The notes: generated by a model from the sequence alone, not told the origin. DNA of 24,000 bases from Thaumarchaeota archaeon CSP1-1 (GCA_001443365.1 LDXL01000004.1:1-24000); one strand, 5' to 3'. Counted from the first letter of the stretch, positions 11,418 through 19,952 are shown. Program-made: numbers and translations.

Positions 11418-12080
11418 TTAGTAATGTCTTCTTTGTAGTGCAATGATTCCAGCTAACAAAATTAATGTAAAACCAACAACGCCTACTCCTAGTGATATTA
11501 TCAAGATCGCAAATGAGACAAAAAACAATATCTTTCCAACCTTCTTTGGTTTTTTGATAAGAAAAGAAATTGCTATAACAAAAATACATAGGACACTTGT
11601 AGCAATTCCTGCTGCGATAAATAAATTGGTAAATCCAGAAAGGTCTCGTCCTGTGTATGACTCTAAAGAAAACAGTATTCTTTCAATGGTATAGACAGCA
11701 ACCAATGAAGGAATCAAGGCAGCCAGTCCACCAAGTATTGCAAGGAGCTGGTAAAAGTTTACACCGAGATGAAAACGAAATGGAAATGAGCGTGAGCTAA
11801 ACCTTGATGAAAATACTTCAGCATCAAAGTATTTTTGCTGAGGAATTCCACAAAAGGAACAATAGTTTGAAGACTGTAAGATAGTGTTTCCACACTTGGG
11901 ACAGTTGAAAGATGTTGTTTTCTCTAAATCATTTGTCGGCTGCTCATTTTTTTCAAAATTAGCATCAATAAGTGATTCAACATACTCTATATCTGAATTG
12001 TATACCTTCTTTTTTTCAACAATAGAGTTTTTGATGTGAGTTAATCTGCTTACGTCTCCAATTCCGCTATTTATCAACAA
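11418..12080 (-). CDS. zinc-ribbon membrane protein (N-terminal cytoplasmic region, CxxC-x12-CxxC ribbon, about 4 TM helices)
   Basis: 220 aa. Zinc ribbon CPKCGNTILQSSNYCSFCG followed by hydrophobic helices (LLAILGGLAALIPSLVAV, FIAAGIATSVLCIFVIAISF, ILFFVSFAILIISLGVGVVGFTLILLAGIIAL). There is no ATG before the zinc ribbon, so the start is TTG 12080 or another non-ATG codon. Confidence 0.6.
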   Translation of the reverse strand: MLINSGIGDVSRLTHIKNSIVEKKKVYNSDIEYVESLIDANFEKNEQPTNDLEKTTSFNCPKCGNTILQSSNYCSFCGIPQQKYFDAEVFSSRFSSRSFPFRFHLGVNFYQLLAILGGLAALIPSLVAVYTIERILFSLESYTGRDLSGFTNLFIAAGIATSVLCIFVIAISFLIKKPKKVGKILFFVSFAILIISLGVGVVGFTLILLAGIIALQRRHY

Positions 12081-12277
12081 CTCTACTTTGCCAAGTAATG
12101 ATTTGATCTTCTTTCACCTATGAAATGTCTAGTTCCAACTTTCCATATTAAAGAATTTATCATAATTTATCTTACAAAATTAATAACATAATTTTTGCTG
12201 TCTCATATTATTCCATGTCACGATATGTTGATAGCAAGTCTTAATTGATTGGGCACGTACATTTGAATCCTGAGAGT

Positions 12278-13663
12278 ATGACAAAGGTAGCCCCCCTCCC
12301 CCCCGCACCAGTTTTAATGACTTGTTTTGGCCACTGTGGGATAGGATTAGGAGCCGAGACTTATCGTAGATTATTGCTTGATGTTGGGGCAAATCCATTA
12401 AAGCCAACTATTAAAAGCGCAAAGGAAGAGTCCAGAGTTTTAAAACGATATGGAAGCACCATACTCCGATTCGCTCCTTCCTATGGAACAGGTGAGATTC
12501 CACTTATACCAAGAGCCCTACTTGTTGATTTAGATCCAAGGGCTGCAAACCTGATACTTCAATCATACCCAGACCTTTTTGCATTACGTGAAAAACATGT
12601 GATACATGGAGCTGGCGGTGCTGCAAGGAATTGGGCTGAAGGAAGGACAAGATTCACCCAAGAGATGAAATCAAAAGAGGAGATCCAAAAACATCTAACT
12701 GCGCTCTCACCAGAACCAGTGCGAGGATTTATCGTTCCTTTTGCCATGGGTGGCGGCACAGGTAGTTCGTTTGCAAGCTCATTTATTGAATTTGTAAAAA
12801 AAGATTCTAAAGAGCATGCTACAGTTGCTACTTTTGGATTGCTTCCAGAATTTGGATGGGATCCAGTAATTTTTGAGGCAGCTGCAATAAACATTGTCAT
12901 GAATCTTGAATATCAGATAAAATACAGTGATTGTTCTATATTATTTTCAAACAAAACTCTAAGACAACTAGCACACCAACATGAAAAAAGATTACAAAAA
13001 ATTCCATCCATAATTGATGACTTGCCTAAAGAACAGGAAGTTGGATGGAAGGAGTACAAGGGAATGAATCTGATTGCAGCAAATGCAATTTCGATGTTTA
13101 TTTCCTCATTTGCAAGAGAGACAGAATGGGATATGTCAAATTATAGAACGTGGTTAACGACAAAGAGACCAAAGTTTGCAATACCATGGGCAATCCCTGT
13201 AATTGCAGAAGAAAGTCAATGGAACAAGGAATTGCTTGGTGGAAGATCAAACACAATGGATGACGTAATAACTAGAATAGGAAAAAGAGAGGATGCGCTT
13301 CTTTTTGACATTGATGAAAATGACATTAGAAACAAGGGTGGCAAAAAGGATTCCTGCTGTGTTTTGGTAAAAATTAGAGGAGAGTTTGATATCAAAGAAC
13401 GTGAAACGATTAAACGAATTATCAAAGATAAATTCAATATCGAAGAATCCAGAATGATTTTTGTAAAAATTCCAATTATGGATGGAGAACAGGCAAATGT
13501 CACCATCTTGGTCAATACTAAAGCCATAGGACCAAAAATTCTTGAAATTGCAACAGAGGCAGAAGAATCATGGGATGGTTATAAAGAAGAATATGGAAGG
13601 TGGGGCCTATCAACAGAAGAATTCAAACAAGGATTGATGGATGTAGTCCACCAATTTAGCTAA
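12278..13663 (+). CDS. tubulin-like GTPase (artubulin-type, tubulin/FtsZ superfamily)
   Basis: Motifs line up with eukaryotic tubulin. CFGHCGIGLG matches GQCGNQIG. IPRALLVDLDPRAANL matches VPRAxLVDLEPGTMD. GAGGAARNWAEG matches GAGNNWAKG. GGGTGSS matches the signature GGGTGSG. DMSNYRTWLTTKRPKFAIPWAIPV matches [25 protein letters not shown]. The track ORF begins at TTG 12245, but ATG 12278 (MTKVAPLPPAPVLMTCFGHCG) is the likelier start. Confidence 0.85.
   Translation: MTKVAPLPPAPVLMTCFGHCGIGLGAETYRRLLLDVGANPLKPTIKSAKEESRVLKRYGSTILRFAPSYGTGEIPLIPRALLVDLDPRAANLILQSYPDLFALREKHVIHGAGGAARNWAEGRTRFTQEMKSKEEIQKHLTALSPEPVRGFIVPFAMGGGTGSSFASSFIEFVKKDSKEHATVATFGLLPEFGWDPVIFEAAAINIVMNLEYQIKYSDCSILFSNKTLRQLAHQHEKRLQKIPSIIDDLPKEQEVGWKEYKGMNLIAANAISMFISSFARETEWDMSNYRTWLTTKRPKFAIPWAIPVIAEESQWNKELLGGRSNTMDDVITRIGKREDALLFDIDENDIRNKGGKKDSCCVLVKIRGEFDIKERETIKRIIKDKFNIEESRMIFVKIPIMDGEQANVTILVNTKAIGPKILEIATEAEESWDGYKEEYGRWGLSTEEFKQGLMDVVHQFS
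12291..12304 (+). repeat. C6-T-C7 homopolymeric tract inside the 5' end of the tubulin-like CDS
   Basis: Read directly as cccccctccccccc at 12291-12304, encoding part of APLPPAP. It is conspicuous in an otherwise AT-rich window. Confidence 0.9.
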
Positions 13664-13678
13664 AGGGCTTTTACTAAA

Positions 13679-14233
13679 ATGGCTGATTTTAATTTTCTTG
13701 AAAAAACTGCAGTAAGAATAAAAGAAAATAGAGCAAAATTAGCTCAGCTAGAAGAATCTCTTGCATACGTTAACACAGAAATACACGAGATTCCTCTAAA
13801 GCGCAACACCGAATCAACCTTTGCAAAGATTATTGGAATTGGATATGATGACAGAATAGATGAGCTTAAAAAATCAAAAGATAATCTTGAAAATCAAATA
13901 AAAAATTTGAGCGATGCAGTAACCTCCGACATGTCCTCATTTATTTCTGAAATTAGTTCACCAGATTTGGTGATCCCACTAGAACCAAATCCTAACCTGA
14001 AAGATGGCAAAACAATTTACAAGTATCGTGATGGTGCAAAATTTAATAATATTTTTGATGTATTAAGCGAATTGTTAGGCCTAAGTGCTCCACTTGTTGT
14101 AAAGGATGTCATGCTTTCTTCAACAGAGATAACAATTGCAACACGCGAAGAATTTGAGGCAAAACAAAAGTTTATCAGCGCCATGAATGAAATTCAAAAA
14201 ACCCTACTGATTAAAAAAAGTCATAAACCATAA
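13679..14233 (+). CDS. hypothetical coiled-coil protein co-oriented with the tubulin-like gene
   Basis: 184 aa. It starts 15 nt after the artubulin stop. The N-terminal segments are heptad-like (IKENRAKLAQLEESLAYVNTEIHEI; IDELKKSKDNLENQIKNLSDAV) and are followed by a C-terminal globular part. I recognised no family. Confidence 0.6.
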   Translation: MADFNFLEKTAVRIKENRAKLAQLEESLAYVNTEIHEIPLKRNTESTFAKIIGIGYDDRIDELKKSKDNLENQIKNLSDAVTSDMSSFISEISSPDLVIPLEPNPNLKDGKTIYKYRDGAKFNNIFDVLSELLGLSAPLVVKDVMLSSTEITIATREEFEAKQKFISAMNEIQKTLLIKKSHKP

Positions 14234-16497: not shown

Positions 16498-17214
16498 CTA
16501 CTTTTTTGATTTATTAATTTCTATAAGAACCCAGTCTTCAATTAACTGACACGTTAGTGGACTTATCTCTCCCTCCAAGGAACATTTCTGTTCCACAGGA
16601 CATGTCAAACATGGTGCGTCTTCAATAGATTCTGTACTAACAGGTGTTCTTTTGATTATTAATTTATAGGTCCATCTACCTTTTTCGAGAATTTTTTCTC
16701 TTGAAATTATCCCTAATCTTTCTAATTTAAGAGCCAATCTAGAACCGTCTCTACTAGTTAGTTTTAATTTCTTCCATAATTCGCTTTGTAACATTCCATC
16801 TGTTTCATATTTGGCAACAATATCACAGACCTTGTTTGTTAGCTTCTCCATATCCATTTTTTCTATTTGAAAGTTTTGAATTTCTTCATCTGTGAGTTGT
16901 TCTTCTAACTCTTCTTCGTAGGTTTTAGGTTCCTCTTTCTCAAGTTCCTCTTTTATTTTCTTTTCTTCTTTCTTAGATGGAGCTTTTGTTTTCTTTTCTT
17001 CTTTCTTAGATGGAACTTTTATTTTCTTTTCTTCTTTCTTAGATGGAGCTTTTATTTTCTTTTCTTTACTTGAAGTTTTTTGTTCTAATTCCATCCTTAA
17101 TTTCTTAATTTTTTGTTCCAGCTGTTGAGCTTTTTTTGCAATTGCACTTGTTGTAGCTGGTGTATCTGATTCTGTTGATGATTTTTCTTTTTTTGGTTCC
17201 ATAATTTCTCTCAA
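16498..17214 (-). CDS. TFE-beta / RPC34-like transcription factor (winged helix plus Cys4 Fe-S domain) with an N-terminal K/E-rich repeat extension
   Basis: 238 aa. The C-terminal half has a wH-like segment (MLQSELWKKLKLTSRDGSRLALKLERLGIISREKILEKGRWTYKLI). This is followed by C-x2-C-x5-C-x10-C (CLTCPVEQKCSLEGEISPLTC). That architecture was described for crenarchaeal/thaumarchaeal TFE-beta and RPC34/hRPC39. The assignment is from memory of the architecture, not from a search. Confidence 0.55.
   Translation of the reverse strand: MREIMEPKKEKSSTESDTPATTSAIAKKAQQLEQKIKKLRMELEQKTSSKEKKIKAPSKKEEKKIKVPSKKEEKKTKAPSKKEEKKIKEELEKEEPKTYEEELEEQLTDEEIQNFQIEKMDMEKLTNKVCDIVAKYETDGMLQSELWKKLKLTSRDGSRLALKLERLGIISREKILEKGRWTYKLIIKRTPVSTESIEDAPCLTCPVEQKCSLEGEISPLTCQLIEDWVLIEINKSKK
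16950..17070 (-). repeat. 33-bp in-frame tandem repeat (about 3.6 copies) encoding (A/V)PSKKEEKK(I/T)K
   Basis: On the plus strand, the units beginning cttagatgg at 16972 and 17005 differ by 2 nt. The unit beginning at 17038 matches for its first 26 nt or so and then diverges. A partial copy lies at 16951-16971. The period of 33 nt equals 11 codons. Confidence 0.9.
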
Positions 17215-17849: not shown

Positions 17850-19952
17850 ATGAGACTAAGAAAATTTAGAGTTCGTGCATTTCGGTGCATTCATGATTCT
17901 GGGGAAATCAAAGTAGGAGACTTGGCAGCATTTGTTGGAAGAAATGAAAGTGGAAAAACAACAATCTTGCAGGGTCTTACATTATTGAACAAAGATGAGA
18001 ACGTTTCTAATCTTGATCTATGTGATGAGATGTCTGAAGAGTTAAAAAATGAGATAAATATTGCTGATGGGGATTTTGATCTAACAATAAATGAAACACA
18101 AATGATTAAGGATAAATTTCCAAATATCCCTGAAATTAAAAAATTAAGAATTTTCCGTACCAATAAAAAACAAAAAATCCAATATGACTTTGGTCCAATA
18201 AAAATAAGCAACGAAGAAAATAAAGCATTAAACTCTTGGGAAAACTTTGCAGAAAATATACTCAATTTTGTTGAAACTATTCCTAATCACATTAGAATAA
18301 GATTAGATACAACATTCTTTGAAGGGTCTCTACCAGAGAGTCGAGAAATTTTTGATTCTCAAATGAGAGAATTTGGAAATACGATTCATGTTTTAGCATC
18401 TGAAGAACCACAAATAATTTCAGAGTGGGAAAAAGTTTCCAAAAATGCTGATGCTGCTTTTGATAAGATGTTGGTAGGAACCACAGAACTTACTGCTTTA
18501 GAAAACTTTATTGAAGAATATCTACACCCACGTTTTGTTTATTTTTCTGATTATAAGAAAATCTATGGAAATATCAATCTAAATGAATATGTCAAAGAAT
18601 CAAAAGGTTATAGAACGGAAGGAATAGAGTTTGTTGAAGAATTTGACAAAGCAGAAACTGTTAGAAACTTATTTTATTTAGCTGAATTAGATATTGAAGG
18701 ATTAGAAGAGTTTCATAATAGTCCTTCAAAATTGATAAAGTATCTCAATACTGCAAGCAATAGATTAACTACAAGACTCAATCCTGCCTGGAAAGGGGAT
18801 CCAATACATGTTGATTTAAGATACAATCCTGGAAATATCTTGAGTGTTGTAATTTCTGATATTCATAAAGATGGTACAGTGACCAATACCGGATTGTTAA
18901 ATAGAAGAGCTGAGGGTTTCAAATGGACATTTTCTTTTATAGTTAATTTTGCTGCAGAGACTCAAAGAGCAGAACTTAAGGAGGCCATATTACTGCTTGA
19001 TGAACCTGCACGAAACTTACATCCTACCCAACAACGAGGAATCTCTGATCTGTTAAAGAACTTAGCTGGCTCAAACCAAGTCCTTTATGCAACCCACTCT
19101 CCTTTCATGATATTTGATTATACTCCAGGAAATTTACTAGTAGTTGAGCTTGATAAGAGAAAGCACCTAAGCAAGATATACTATGATTATTGGAATGCTA
19201 GTGATGAAACTCTCACACCGATTTTGTATGGATTATCAAGAGGTCTAGTGGAATCTATCGTAGATAGAGAAATTGGTTCTAATTCAAGACCAGTAATAAT
19301 TGTTGAAACAATGTCTGATGCGATGTATCTAAATGCGTTTGATAAATTTCTAGAAGATCCCAATATCTCAATGAATCCGCTAAACGTTGTCGCTGCATAT
19401 AGTAAAAATTCAGTATTACCGCTTGCAATATTTTATCGAGATCATGGATATAAAACCTTCATCTTACTTGACAACAGTGAAGAATCAAAACATATCTCGA
19501 CTCAGTTGACTGCAAATGATTTCTCTCAAGTACAAACTATATTTTTTGAGTCTGGTGGAAAACAAATACAATCAATAGAGGATTATTTACATATTGAAGA
19601 CTACCTTTATGCCGTAAACCAGACATACGAGATCATGCTAAGAAGGGAAGGATTTAGTAATTTAGCTAAAGAGGATGTTTTAGCAAGGGGGAAGAAGGGA
19701 ATTGTTGAGAATCTTAATGCAATCTGGATGGAACATAAAGATGAAGGATGGGGCAAATTCAACAACGAAGAAATTACAAGATATATTTGTGAAAAAATTG
19801 CTTTAAATGAAATTGACTTTTTATCTGATAAATCAAAGGAACAGTTAAGAACGCTGTATAGGTTAATTGCAGAAAGAATTCGCCAACATCAAAATCTAAT
19901 TTCAAGCGGGAATCTAGATAAATTACATATCAAGCGAAAGTTTGATCAATGA
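17850..19952 (+). CDS. ABC/AAA-type ATPase fused to a C-terminal Toprim-like domain (OLD-family / PARIS-like nuclease candidate)
   Basis: 700 aa. ATPase motifs: Walker A GRNESGKT, signature-like RRAEGFKWTFSFIVNF, Walker B LLLDEP and H-loop LYATHSP, with a long helical insertion between Walker A and the signature. The C-terminal region has VIIVETMSDAMY ... SKNSVLP ... FILLDNSEE, arranged like the Toprim E ... DxD. No helicase gene lies nearby. Confidence 0.55.
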   Translation: MRLRKFRVRAFRCIHDSGEIKVGDLAAFVGRNESGKTTILQGLTLLNKDENVSNLDLCDEMSEELKNEINIADGDFDLTINETQMIKDKFPNIPEIKKLRIFRTNKKQKIQYDFGPIKISNEENKALNSWENFAENILNFVETIPNHIRIRLDTTFFEGSLPESREIFDSQMREFGNTIHVLASEEPQIISEWEKVSKNADAAFDKMLVGTTELTALENFIEEYLHPRFVYFSDYKKIYGNINLNEYVKESKGYRTEGIEFVEEFDKAETVRNLFYLAELDIEGLEEFHNSPSKLIKYLNTASNRLTTRLNPAWKGDPIHVDLRYNPGNILSVVISDIHKDGTVTNTGLLNRRAEGFKWTFSFIVNFAAETQRAELKEAILLLDEPARNLHPTQQRGISDLLKNLAGSNQVLYATHSPFMIFDYTPGNLLVVELDKRKHLSKIYYDYWNASDETLTPILYGLSRGLVESIVDREIGSNSRPVIIVETMSDAMYLNAFDKFLEDPNISMNPLNVVAAYSKNSVLPLAIFYRDHGYKTFILLDNSEESKHISTQLTANDFSQVQTIFFESGGKQIQSIEDYLHIEDYLYAVNQTYEIMLRREGFSNLAKEDVLARGKKGIVENLNAIWMEHKDEGWGKFNNEEITRYICEKIALNEIDFLSDKSKEQLRTLYRLIAERIRQHQNLISSGNLDKLHIKRKFDQ

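Follow-up and report, generated by a model that had tools for sequence, protein, structure and literature searches.

A small protein of an undescribed family encoded directly behind artubulin, a candidate partner for an archaeal tubulin

A 24,000-nucleotide stretch of the genome of Thaumarchaeota archaeon CSP1-1 (GCA_001443365.1, LDXL01000004.1:1-24000; to be referred to as the window) carries artubulin, a gene of the tubulin family, and directly behind it a small gene for a protein of 184 residues, p184. The question raised by this locus is whether p184 is the dedicated partner of the tubulin-like protein, and what kind of protein it is. A reading of the window from its sequence alone (the sequence-only reading) had proposed that the two genes are tightly coupled. 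This coupling is borne out here: p184 was found beside artubulin in every informative locus, whichever of the two genes was used to recover the locus, and also across deep divergence. In addition, p184 belongs to a protein family that has not been described before, and it is probably an adaptor or regulator of artubulin.

The artubulin-p184 gene pair

The artubulin gene is located on the plus strand at 12278..13663 and encodes 461 amino acids, from a probable ATG at 12278 to a TAA stop codon at 13661-13663. The longest open reading frame (ORF) starts at a TTG at 12245 (plus strand, 472 amino acids), but the ATG at 12278 is the likeliest start, as the calls for public homologues are mostly 461-464 amino acids long. 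The protein matches the Tubulin family (Pfam PF00091, E=3.4e-18), and among solved structures it is closest to Asgard AtubA/B and gamma-tubulin, aligned through the GTPase domain. It corresponds to artubulin as defined by Yutin & Koonin 2012 (PMC3349469). In public records, its orthologues carry the names "cell division protein FtsZ" (NCBI) and "tubulin gamma" (JGI), and the homologues of p184 are entered as "hypothetical protein" in nearly all of the named records.

The stop codon of artubulin is followed by a spacer of 15 nucleotides (13664..13678, plus strand), which contains a weak purine-rich AGGG, and then by the ATG of the p184 gene (13679..14233, plus strand; 184 codons plus the stop codon). 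This ORF is present exactly as the sequence-only reading had described it, on the same strand and 15 nucleotides after the artubulin stop. In the window the two genes share a single reading frame (12245-14233), with the TAA and five codons between them. Elsewhere, the length of the spacer is often not divisible by three, and therefore the shared frame does not represent a conserved fusion by stop-codon read-through. Moreover, a deep profile search through 1.84 billion representative proteins returned 47 relatives of p184, among which there are no tubulin-p184 fusion proteins, all 47 being 310 residues long or shorter.

A search through 5.8 billion clustered proteins finds 313 homologues of p184. 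Among the 120 matches listed, nearly all are 181-186 residues long and have no functional name, and those labelled with an organism come from Nitrosopumilaceae-type archaea. The linkage of the two genes was assessed in both directions. The forward sample consists of 80 artubulin loci from GTDB contigs, with one genome per species and with the genes placed by tblastn. A p184 homologue is located immediately 3' of artubulin and on the same strand in 79 of these loci, and in the sole exception (L074) the contig stops 48 nucleotides past artubulin. The expectation that every genome with artubulin has the small gene directly downstream is therefore upheld, the lone exception being a contig that ends.

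The reverse sample consists of metagenome loci that were recovered through p184. Some upstream sequence is available for 18 of them; three further loci start within p184 and hence are uninformative. Artubulin is found directly upstream of p184 in all 17 informative loci, with L086 (1-1465) left out as chimeric. In that contig, only the final 65 codons of artubulin are kept upstream of p184, and high-GC, bacterial-looking DNA is joined to them within the artubulin gene.

There are 94 complete pairs. The spacer between the two genes is 2-16 nucleotides long in these pairs, often with motifs like GGTG or GGAG, and p184 starts with ATG in 89 of them. One locus (L045, BMAH01000059.1) is titled "Gammaproteobacteria bacterium BBSC-SA02", yet it shows a typical Nitrosotenuis-type artubulin-p184 arrangement, and this contig is probably mis-binned or a contaminant.

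The pairing also extends to distant forms of both proteins. Five divergent lineages of artubulin, with 51-56% identity to that of the window, keep a p184 homologue 1-57 nucleotides downstream (L107; L116-118; L119-120; L121-122; and the GC-rich fragments L102 and L108). The p184 proteins of these lineages are 185-191 residues long, match the p184 profile with E values of 6e-43 to 6e-24, and are 23-34% identical to p184 of the window where this was measured. The contigs have GC fractions of 0.38-0.69, and one of them is labelled Nitrososphaerales.

The surroundings of the pair are much less constant. All ORFs were clustered in the 80 GTDB loci and the window (81 loci in total), and only artubulin and p184 are present throughout. 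At least five unrelated arrangements of the flanking genes can be told apart by the upstream gene, and the divergent artubulin lineages contribute additional gene contexts. Since the two genes stay together despite this rearrangement and despite their own divergence, the pair is under selection as a unit.

At a dS of about 1, the ratio of nonsynonymous to synonymous substitution rates (dN/dS) is about 0.07 in p184 and about 0.03 in artubulin, and both proteins are thus under strong purifying selection. The divergence of p184 is roughly 2.2 times faster than that of artubulin, and the identity matrices of the two proteins are correlated (r=0.89). The 313 homologues, the dN/dS ratio, and the retention in 94 pairs show that p184 is a real gene and not a chance ORF.

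For a transcription signal, the 94 complete pairs were scanned for runs of five or more T residues, the oligo-T signal of archaeal termination. No such run occurs in any of the 94 pairs within the final 150 nucleotides of artubulin and the junction. The density of oligo-T runs is 1.2 per kb within both ORFs, compared to 4.0 per kb in the 120 nucleotides after p184. This pattern lends weak support to co-transcription of the two genes.

Predicted structure and classification of p184

A structural model of p184 was obtained with AlphaFold2 from an alignment of 50 sequences. The full-length model has a mean predicted local distance difference test score (pLDDT) of 92.3 and a predicted TM-score (pTM) of 0.79; the C-terminal half modelled alone gives values of 90.1 and 0.78, respectively. 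The N-terminal half is predicted to form an antiparallel helical hairpin. Helix 1 covers residues 4-51 (13688..13831, plus strand; by DSSP, with pLDDT above 89), and helix 2 covers residues 60-92 (13856..13954, plus strand; also assigned by DSSP from the model). With about 45 and 33 residues in its two arms, the modelled hairpin would be roughly 50-65 Å long by our estimate. The hairpin tip (residues 37-58, EIPLKRNTESTFAKIIGIGYDD; 13787..13852, plus strand) is conserved, with the consensus EIPLKRxTESTFAKMIGxxYDD and with the invariant residues P39, E45, F48, A49, G53, Y56, and D58.

The hairpin is followed by a Pro-rich connector (residues 95-107, PDLVIPLEPNPNL; 13961..13999, plus strand), in which P100 is invariant, and by a small α/β domain (residues 106-153; 13994..14137, plus strand). 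This domain has the order strand-strand-helix-strand-strand-strand, with the strands at residues 106-108, 111-116, 139-141, 144-146, and 150-153 and the helix at residues 123-133, and it is the most conserved part of p184. The protein ends with a C-terminal helix (residues 158-181; 14150..14221, plus strand) that terminates in the basic motif QKTLLIKK. The N-terminal motif M-x-D-F-x-F-L-E, which is conserved and placed ahead of helix 1, is brought together with the α/β domain and the basic C-terminal helix at the base of the hairpin in the model. The peaks of conservation are thus the N-terminal motif, the hairpin tip, the connector, and the α/β domain. The two heptad-like helical segments quoted in the sequence-only reading correspond to residues 14-38 and 60-81, both within the modelled helices, and the Pro-rich linker and small C-terminal domain that it had described are recovered in the model as the connector followed by the α/β domain and the final helix.

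With a mass of 21 kDa and an isoelectric point of 5.6, p184 is slightly acidic and predicted to be soluble. It is predicted to contain neither a transmembrane segment nor a strong amphipathic membrane helix, and membrane anchoring of p184 was rejected on these grounds. The net charge of its last helix is +3, and that of the last 40 residues of artubulin is -7.

To locate residues specific to the artubulin-linked proteins, 25 members of the artubulin-partner type (four of them assigned by length alone) were compared with 21 relatives that have no tubulin neighbor or are unplaced. The positions E25, basic 36, P39, K/R41, basic 74, P105, G134, F/Y159, K164, T175, and I178 are conserved only in the partner group. 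P39 is present in 25/25 and a basic residue at position 41 in 23/25 of the artubulin-linked proteins; among the relatives that lack a tubulin neighbor, few or none have these residues. These positions cluster at the P39-x-K41 kink near the tip, at G134, and in the C-terminal helix. They are candidate contact residues, although they could equally reflect shared ancestry.

A family of artubulin partners can be proposed from these features. Its members are about 181-191 residues long, with F-x-x-L-E at the N terminus, a P-x-[KR] kink, the tip motif F-A-x-[LIM]-x-G, the connector [LIV]-P-L-[ED]-P, L-G-L-x-x-P in the α/β domain, and [QR]-x-T-x-x-[LIM]-K in the C-terminal helix. The window protein has the sequence features of this family as well as the position downstream of artubulin.

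A search through known families and structures finds no relative of p184. No credible family was identified in Pfam, NCBIfam, PHROGs, or PADLOC, where the only matches are noise at the level of coiled coils (ASRP, E=6e-4 against a 300-bit cutoff; Prefoldin; DivIC; and a tape-measure protein). Neither p184 nor artubulin matches a PADLOC defence model at E<=0.001. A sequence profile search of the Protein Data Bank (PDB) gives no credible solved relative; a match to cohesin SA-1 (E=0.028) was rejected, as it covers a helical stretch of 54 residues. With Foldseek, the whole model (in the PDB and BFVD) and the C-terminal domain (in the PDB) have no match below E=0.07, and the best query-normalised TM-scores are 0.38-0.45. 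Against the PDB, neither the whole protein nor the C-terminal domain has a match below E=0.1, and the best match for the C-terminal domain alone has an E value of 0.17, with query-normalised TM-scores of at most 0.38.

More specific relationships were also considered. ZapA, SepF, and other FtsZ-binding families are not matched in Pfam or NCBIfam, nor by sequence or fold in the PDB. There is no TPR match, and the model consists of a hairpin and an α/β domain. No family with a helix-turn-helix (HTH) or winged helix is matched, and neither element is present in the predicted secondary structure. A viral origin was rejected because no relative of p184 is present among IMG/VR contigs. The earlier description of p184 as uncharacterised and without an assignable family therefore holds for Pfam, NCBIfam, PHROG, PADLOC, and the PDB as well as for the fold, and p184 is a member of an undescribed protein family, confidently modelled, with no detectable solved relative or curated family.

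One relationship requires separate treatment. The sequence-only reading had guessed at a distant kinship of p184 with helical membrane-remodelling proteins of the Snf7/ESCRT-III type. The idea that p184 is a divergent protein of this kind draws on the length of its hairpin, which is comparable to that in ESCRT-III, on the appearance of the CHMP4B hairpin among the Foldseek matches, and on the literature. Yutin & Koonin 2012 (PMC3349469) described two Nitrosoarchaeum genomes in which artubulin is located beside Snf7 and predicted a cooperation with ESCRT-III, Santana-Molina et al. 2023 (PMC9871819) placed that Snf7 upstream of artubulin, and Lebedeva et al. 2013 found Snf7 to be absent beside the artubulin of Nitrosotenuis. 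All three statements agree with the present locus data. The published Snf7 is, however, a separate, upstream gene; its example at L009:7158-7898 matches Pfam Snf7 with E=7.8e-8 and passes the gathering score. It is the upstream neighbor in only 13 of the 81 loci, all of Nitrosarchaeum type, and has no counterpart in the window. The proposed link between artubulin and ESCRT-III is therefore lineage-specific.

The guess fails at the level of the protein as well. Snf7 (PF03357) is not matched by p184 even at E<=10, nor by any of 50 family members at E<=0.01. A comparison by hhalign of the p184 profile with that of the Nitrosarchaeum Snf7 neighbors gives a probability of 4.8% over 26 columns. The CHMP4B hairpin is at rank 19 in Foldseek, with an E value of 0.6 and a query-normalised TM-score of 0.22, which is non-significant. 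Moreover, the model of p184 contains a five-strand α/β domain, which ESCRT-III lacks, and helices α3-α5 are missing from it. Snf7/CdvB proteins thus have a helical hairpin comparable in length to that of p184 and, in Nitrosarchaeum, share the vicinity of artubulin, but they differ from p184 in gene position, in profile, and in the absence of the β-containing domain. An ESCRT-III-like identity of p184 is effectively refuted at the level of homology, and we regard it as extremely improbable. The downstream p184 gene is not singled out in the artubulin literature examined; the nearest published statement is a general remark that coiled coils are frequent in the neighbors of archaeal tubulin-like genes.

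Relatives and neighbors of the pair

Some relatives of p184 are found away from any tubulin gene. In Nitrosocaldus, a homologue of 196 residues with 31% identity (L123:6001-6591) is located between an upstream radical-SAM gene and a 100-residue ORF, beside the archaellum operon, and there is no tubulin gene within 6 kb. Tubulin-less forms of about 135 residues, in which most of the hairpin is missing, and of about 240 residues exist as well.

The largest tubulin-less forms, of about 300 residues, align with residues 4-173 of p184 (hhalign probability 99.3%, E=1e-20). Their C-terminal extension gives recurrent sub-threshold matches to winged-helix families, always at the same position (TFIIE-alpha, MarR, Z-alpha, ArsR, PF0610-N, SNF8 with E=0.02, and TFE), and a C-terminal winged helix is probable on the basis of these matches. 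Two or three such paralogues stand in tandem arrays (L103:1338-4027; L113:1015-2872; L114:332-3117), of which the L103 array adjoins a tyrosine integrase. These three contigs are short and carry no tubulin gene. The final protein search found only 10 long-form relatives, among which one has the label Thermoprotei archaeon. Because these forms occur without a neighboring tubulin, the hairpin and α/β module is a general scaffold that is not specific to tubulin.

A further relative may exist beside another archaeal tubulin. Santana-Molina et al. 2023 (PMC9871819) described a coiled-coil protein upstream of OdinTubulin, with a Prc1-like N-terminal part and a Snf8-like C-terminal part. The long p184-like forms have a weak match to the winged helix of SNF8 (E=0.02), and the OdinTubulin neighbor may belong to the same superfamily as p184.

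The gene upstream of artubulin encodes a SHOCT-domain protein in 33 loci, an Nre protein in 14, Snf7 in 13, a zinc-ribbon membrane protein in 7 (including the window), and a 210-residue protein in 6. There is no third gene common to all of the loci, the upstream position being held by SHOCT, zinc-ribbon, Snf7, or Nre genes according to the lineage.

In the window, the zinc-ribbon protein is encoded on the minus strand (11418..12080), divergent from artubulin, and has several predicted transmembrane helices; its match to Pfam Zn_Ribbon_1 (E=2.9e-05) is slightly below the Pfam cut-off. The gene is kept beside the pair in the 7 loci while their remaining flanks vary. An N-terminal domain of about 60 residues is common to this protein and the 121-residue SHOCT protein (hmmsearch E values of 1e-8 to 1e-12), and the latter is located directly upstream of artubulin in 33 loci other than the zinc-ribbon ones. 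The zinc-ribbon protein may be a third component that varies by lineage and is not universal.

Other neighbors are more scattered. In 25 loci (for example, L010:3125-3952), the second gene upstream of artubulin, ahead of SHOCT, encodes a 275-residue protein with TPR repeats. TPR repeats are also present in BtubC, a partner of bacterial tubulin, and TPR genes are common in general. An AAA_15 ATPase of 700 residues, similar to OLD, AriA, and GajA, is located 3.6 kb past the pair in the window (17850-19952, plus strand; PADLOC AriA, E=5.7e-23; Pfam AAA_15, E=1.5e-23), and in L107 and L119 the pair has toxin-antitoxin-type genes (MazE-PIN, HEPN-NTase) in its vicinity. A protein of 238 residues (16498-17214, minus strand) contains three copies of the lysine-rich repeat KKEEKKIK[VA]PSKKEEKK and a C-terminal region with Cys residues, and has no match in Pfam or PADLOC.

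The proposed role of p184

With moderate confidence, we propose that p184 is a co-transcribed, dedicated adaptor or regulator that binds artubulin and forms the second component of a two-gene module, with the binding deduced from the linkage. The two genes would be carried on one mRNA, and translation of p184 would be coupled or would start from a weak Shine-Dalgarno-like site. From a shared mRNA and translation of this kind, both proteins would therefore be made together and in a fixed ratio. p184 would then bind directly to artubulin. The likeliest contact would be made by the globular base and the basic C-terminal helix of p184 on the acidic, H11/H12-like C-terminal surface of artubulin, and the hairpin, whose P-x-K/R tip is conserved, would point outward to make another contact. 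By means of both contacts, p184 could control the assembly of the filament (by stabilising, bundling, or capping it) or tie the filament to another structure. It would be a functional counterpart of TubR/TubY, BtubC, ZapA, or SepF, with no homology to any of them.

One known system with a similar organization is TubZ-TubR(-TubY), where the gene of a tubulin-family GTPase likewise forms a tight operon with that of a small, dedicated partner, in varying genomic contexts. TubR is a DNA-binding winged-helix protein of about 100 residues, and its gene is usually located upstream of tubZ. In comparison, the p184 gene is downstream, and p184 has no HTH or winged helix and no sequence or fold likeness to solved proteins. 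The TubR fold is probably present in the distant relatives of p184 with about 300 residues.

In BtubA/BtubB-BtubC (bklc) of Prosthecobacter, a tubulin operon also includes a gene for a non-tubulin protein, and BtubC binds the filament. BtubC is a TPR protein, whereas p184 has no TPR, and artubulin is a single tubulin gene rather than an A/B pair. The BtubA/B operon has been reported to be inserted into otherwise conserved neighborhoods (PMC3349469).

ZapA and SepF resemble p184 as small, soluble or peripheral proteins with a globular α/β part and a coiled coil or helix, and they bundle or anchor a tubulin-family polymer. They differ from p184 in that their genes are not strictly adjacent to ftsZ; p184, for its part, matches no Pfam family, has no significant fold match, and lacks a membrane-targeting amphipathic helix. 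By analogy with these systems, a filament of the tubulin family whose dedicated partner is encoded in the same operon would be a known arrangement, and the new element would be a partner from a previously undescribed family.

Several points weigh against the proposed role. Direct binding of p184 to artubulin is deduced from gene linkage, and the docking surfaces are drawn from patterns of charge and conservation. The signature residues could stem from common descent and not from an interface. The core activity of the scaffold need not be tubulin binding, as shown by the tubulin-less forms, and linkage as strong as that observed would also fit a chaperone or a role in the same pathway with no contact. 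No transcript, proteome, or interaction data on the pair were found in the literature.

The chaperone alternative would have p184 act on the unpolymerised artubulin monomer, as an assembly cofactor that keeps it soluble or GTP-loadable or sequesters it, in parallel to the action of tubulin cofactor A, prefoldin, or stathmin on eukaryotic tubulin. A nearly spacer-less arrangement with a fixed ratio would fit a stoichiometric binder. Prefoldin subunits, cofactor A, and stathmin also hold tubulin subunits by means of a helical hairpin or long helix, a shape like that of p184. Weak matches to Prefoldin at the level of coiled coils point in the same direction (Pfam, E=0.061; prefoldin beta, E=0.005 with the long-form profile), and a protein that misbehaves when expressed alone would be consistent with the finding of no polymerisation biochemistry for artubulin in the literature. 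The prefoldin matches span just 27-100 coiled-coil residues, however, and are far below the thresholds, and Foldseek gives no match to cofactor A, prefoldin, or stathmin. Furthermore, these proteins are eukaryotic, or are general chaperones in archaea, and none of them has the α/β domain of p184. The data gathered do not separate binding to the monomer from binding to the polymer, and we consider a chaperone role rather unlikely.

An alternative that is also unlikely, in our view, assigns p184 to the artubulin pathway with no contact between the two proteins, as a cargo, a downstream effector, or a regulator acting through a third factor. A general adaptor scaffold would have been recruited, one that was ancestrally used with a winged-helix domain in elements of the Thermoprotei type. 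The tubulin-less relatives favor this possibility, both the one beside the archaellum operon in Nitrosocaldus and the tandem triplets of 300-residue forms with a probable winged helix, once beside a tyrosine integrase. A link through the pathway only, however, rarely yields strict adjacency with spacers of 2-16 nucleotides, and the pairing has outlasted at least five changes of context and a divergence of about 50% in the partner.

A broader picture, which we put forward only as a speculation and judge to be rather improbable as a whole, is that artubulin never acts alone and is one half of an obligate two-protein machine. The scaffold of p184 would be an ancient archaeal adaptor, and the pair would derive from, or be analogous to, a mobile-element system for the segregation of DNA or cargo that was domesticated by ammonia-oxidising archaea, with p184 coupling the filament to its cargo.

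Artubulin has been placed near the root of the eukaryotic tubulins, a position shared by few archaeal proteins, and no assigned function or biochemistry for it was found in the literature. The only published functional inference, a cooperation with ESCRT-III, is corrected here to one genus-level lineage (13/81 loci). Among the loci compared, p184 is the sole universal neighbor of artubulin and the best candidate for its working partner, and a complex of the two proteins may explain why artubulin alone has not been characterised. With this candidate, the question of the function and polymerisation of artubulin becomes a simple two-protein experiment. If the pair forms a complex, p184 would represent a fourth kind of dedicated partner for a prokaryotic tubulin-family protein, beside TubR, BtubC, and the FtsZ-binding proteins. 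If the neighbor of OdinTubulin is related to p184, this type of partner would be common to the archaeal tubulins that are nearest to the eukaryotic ones.

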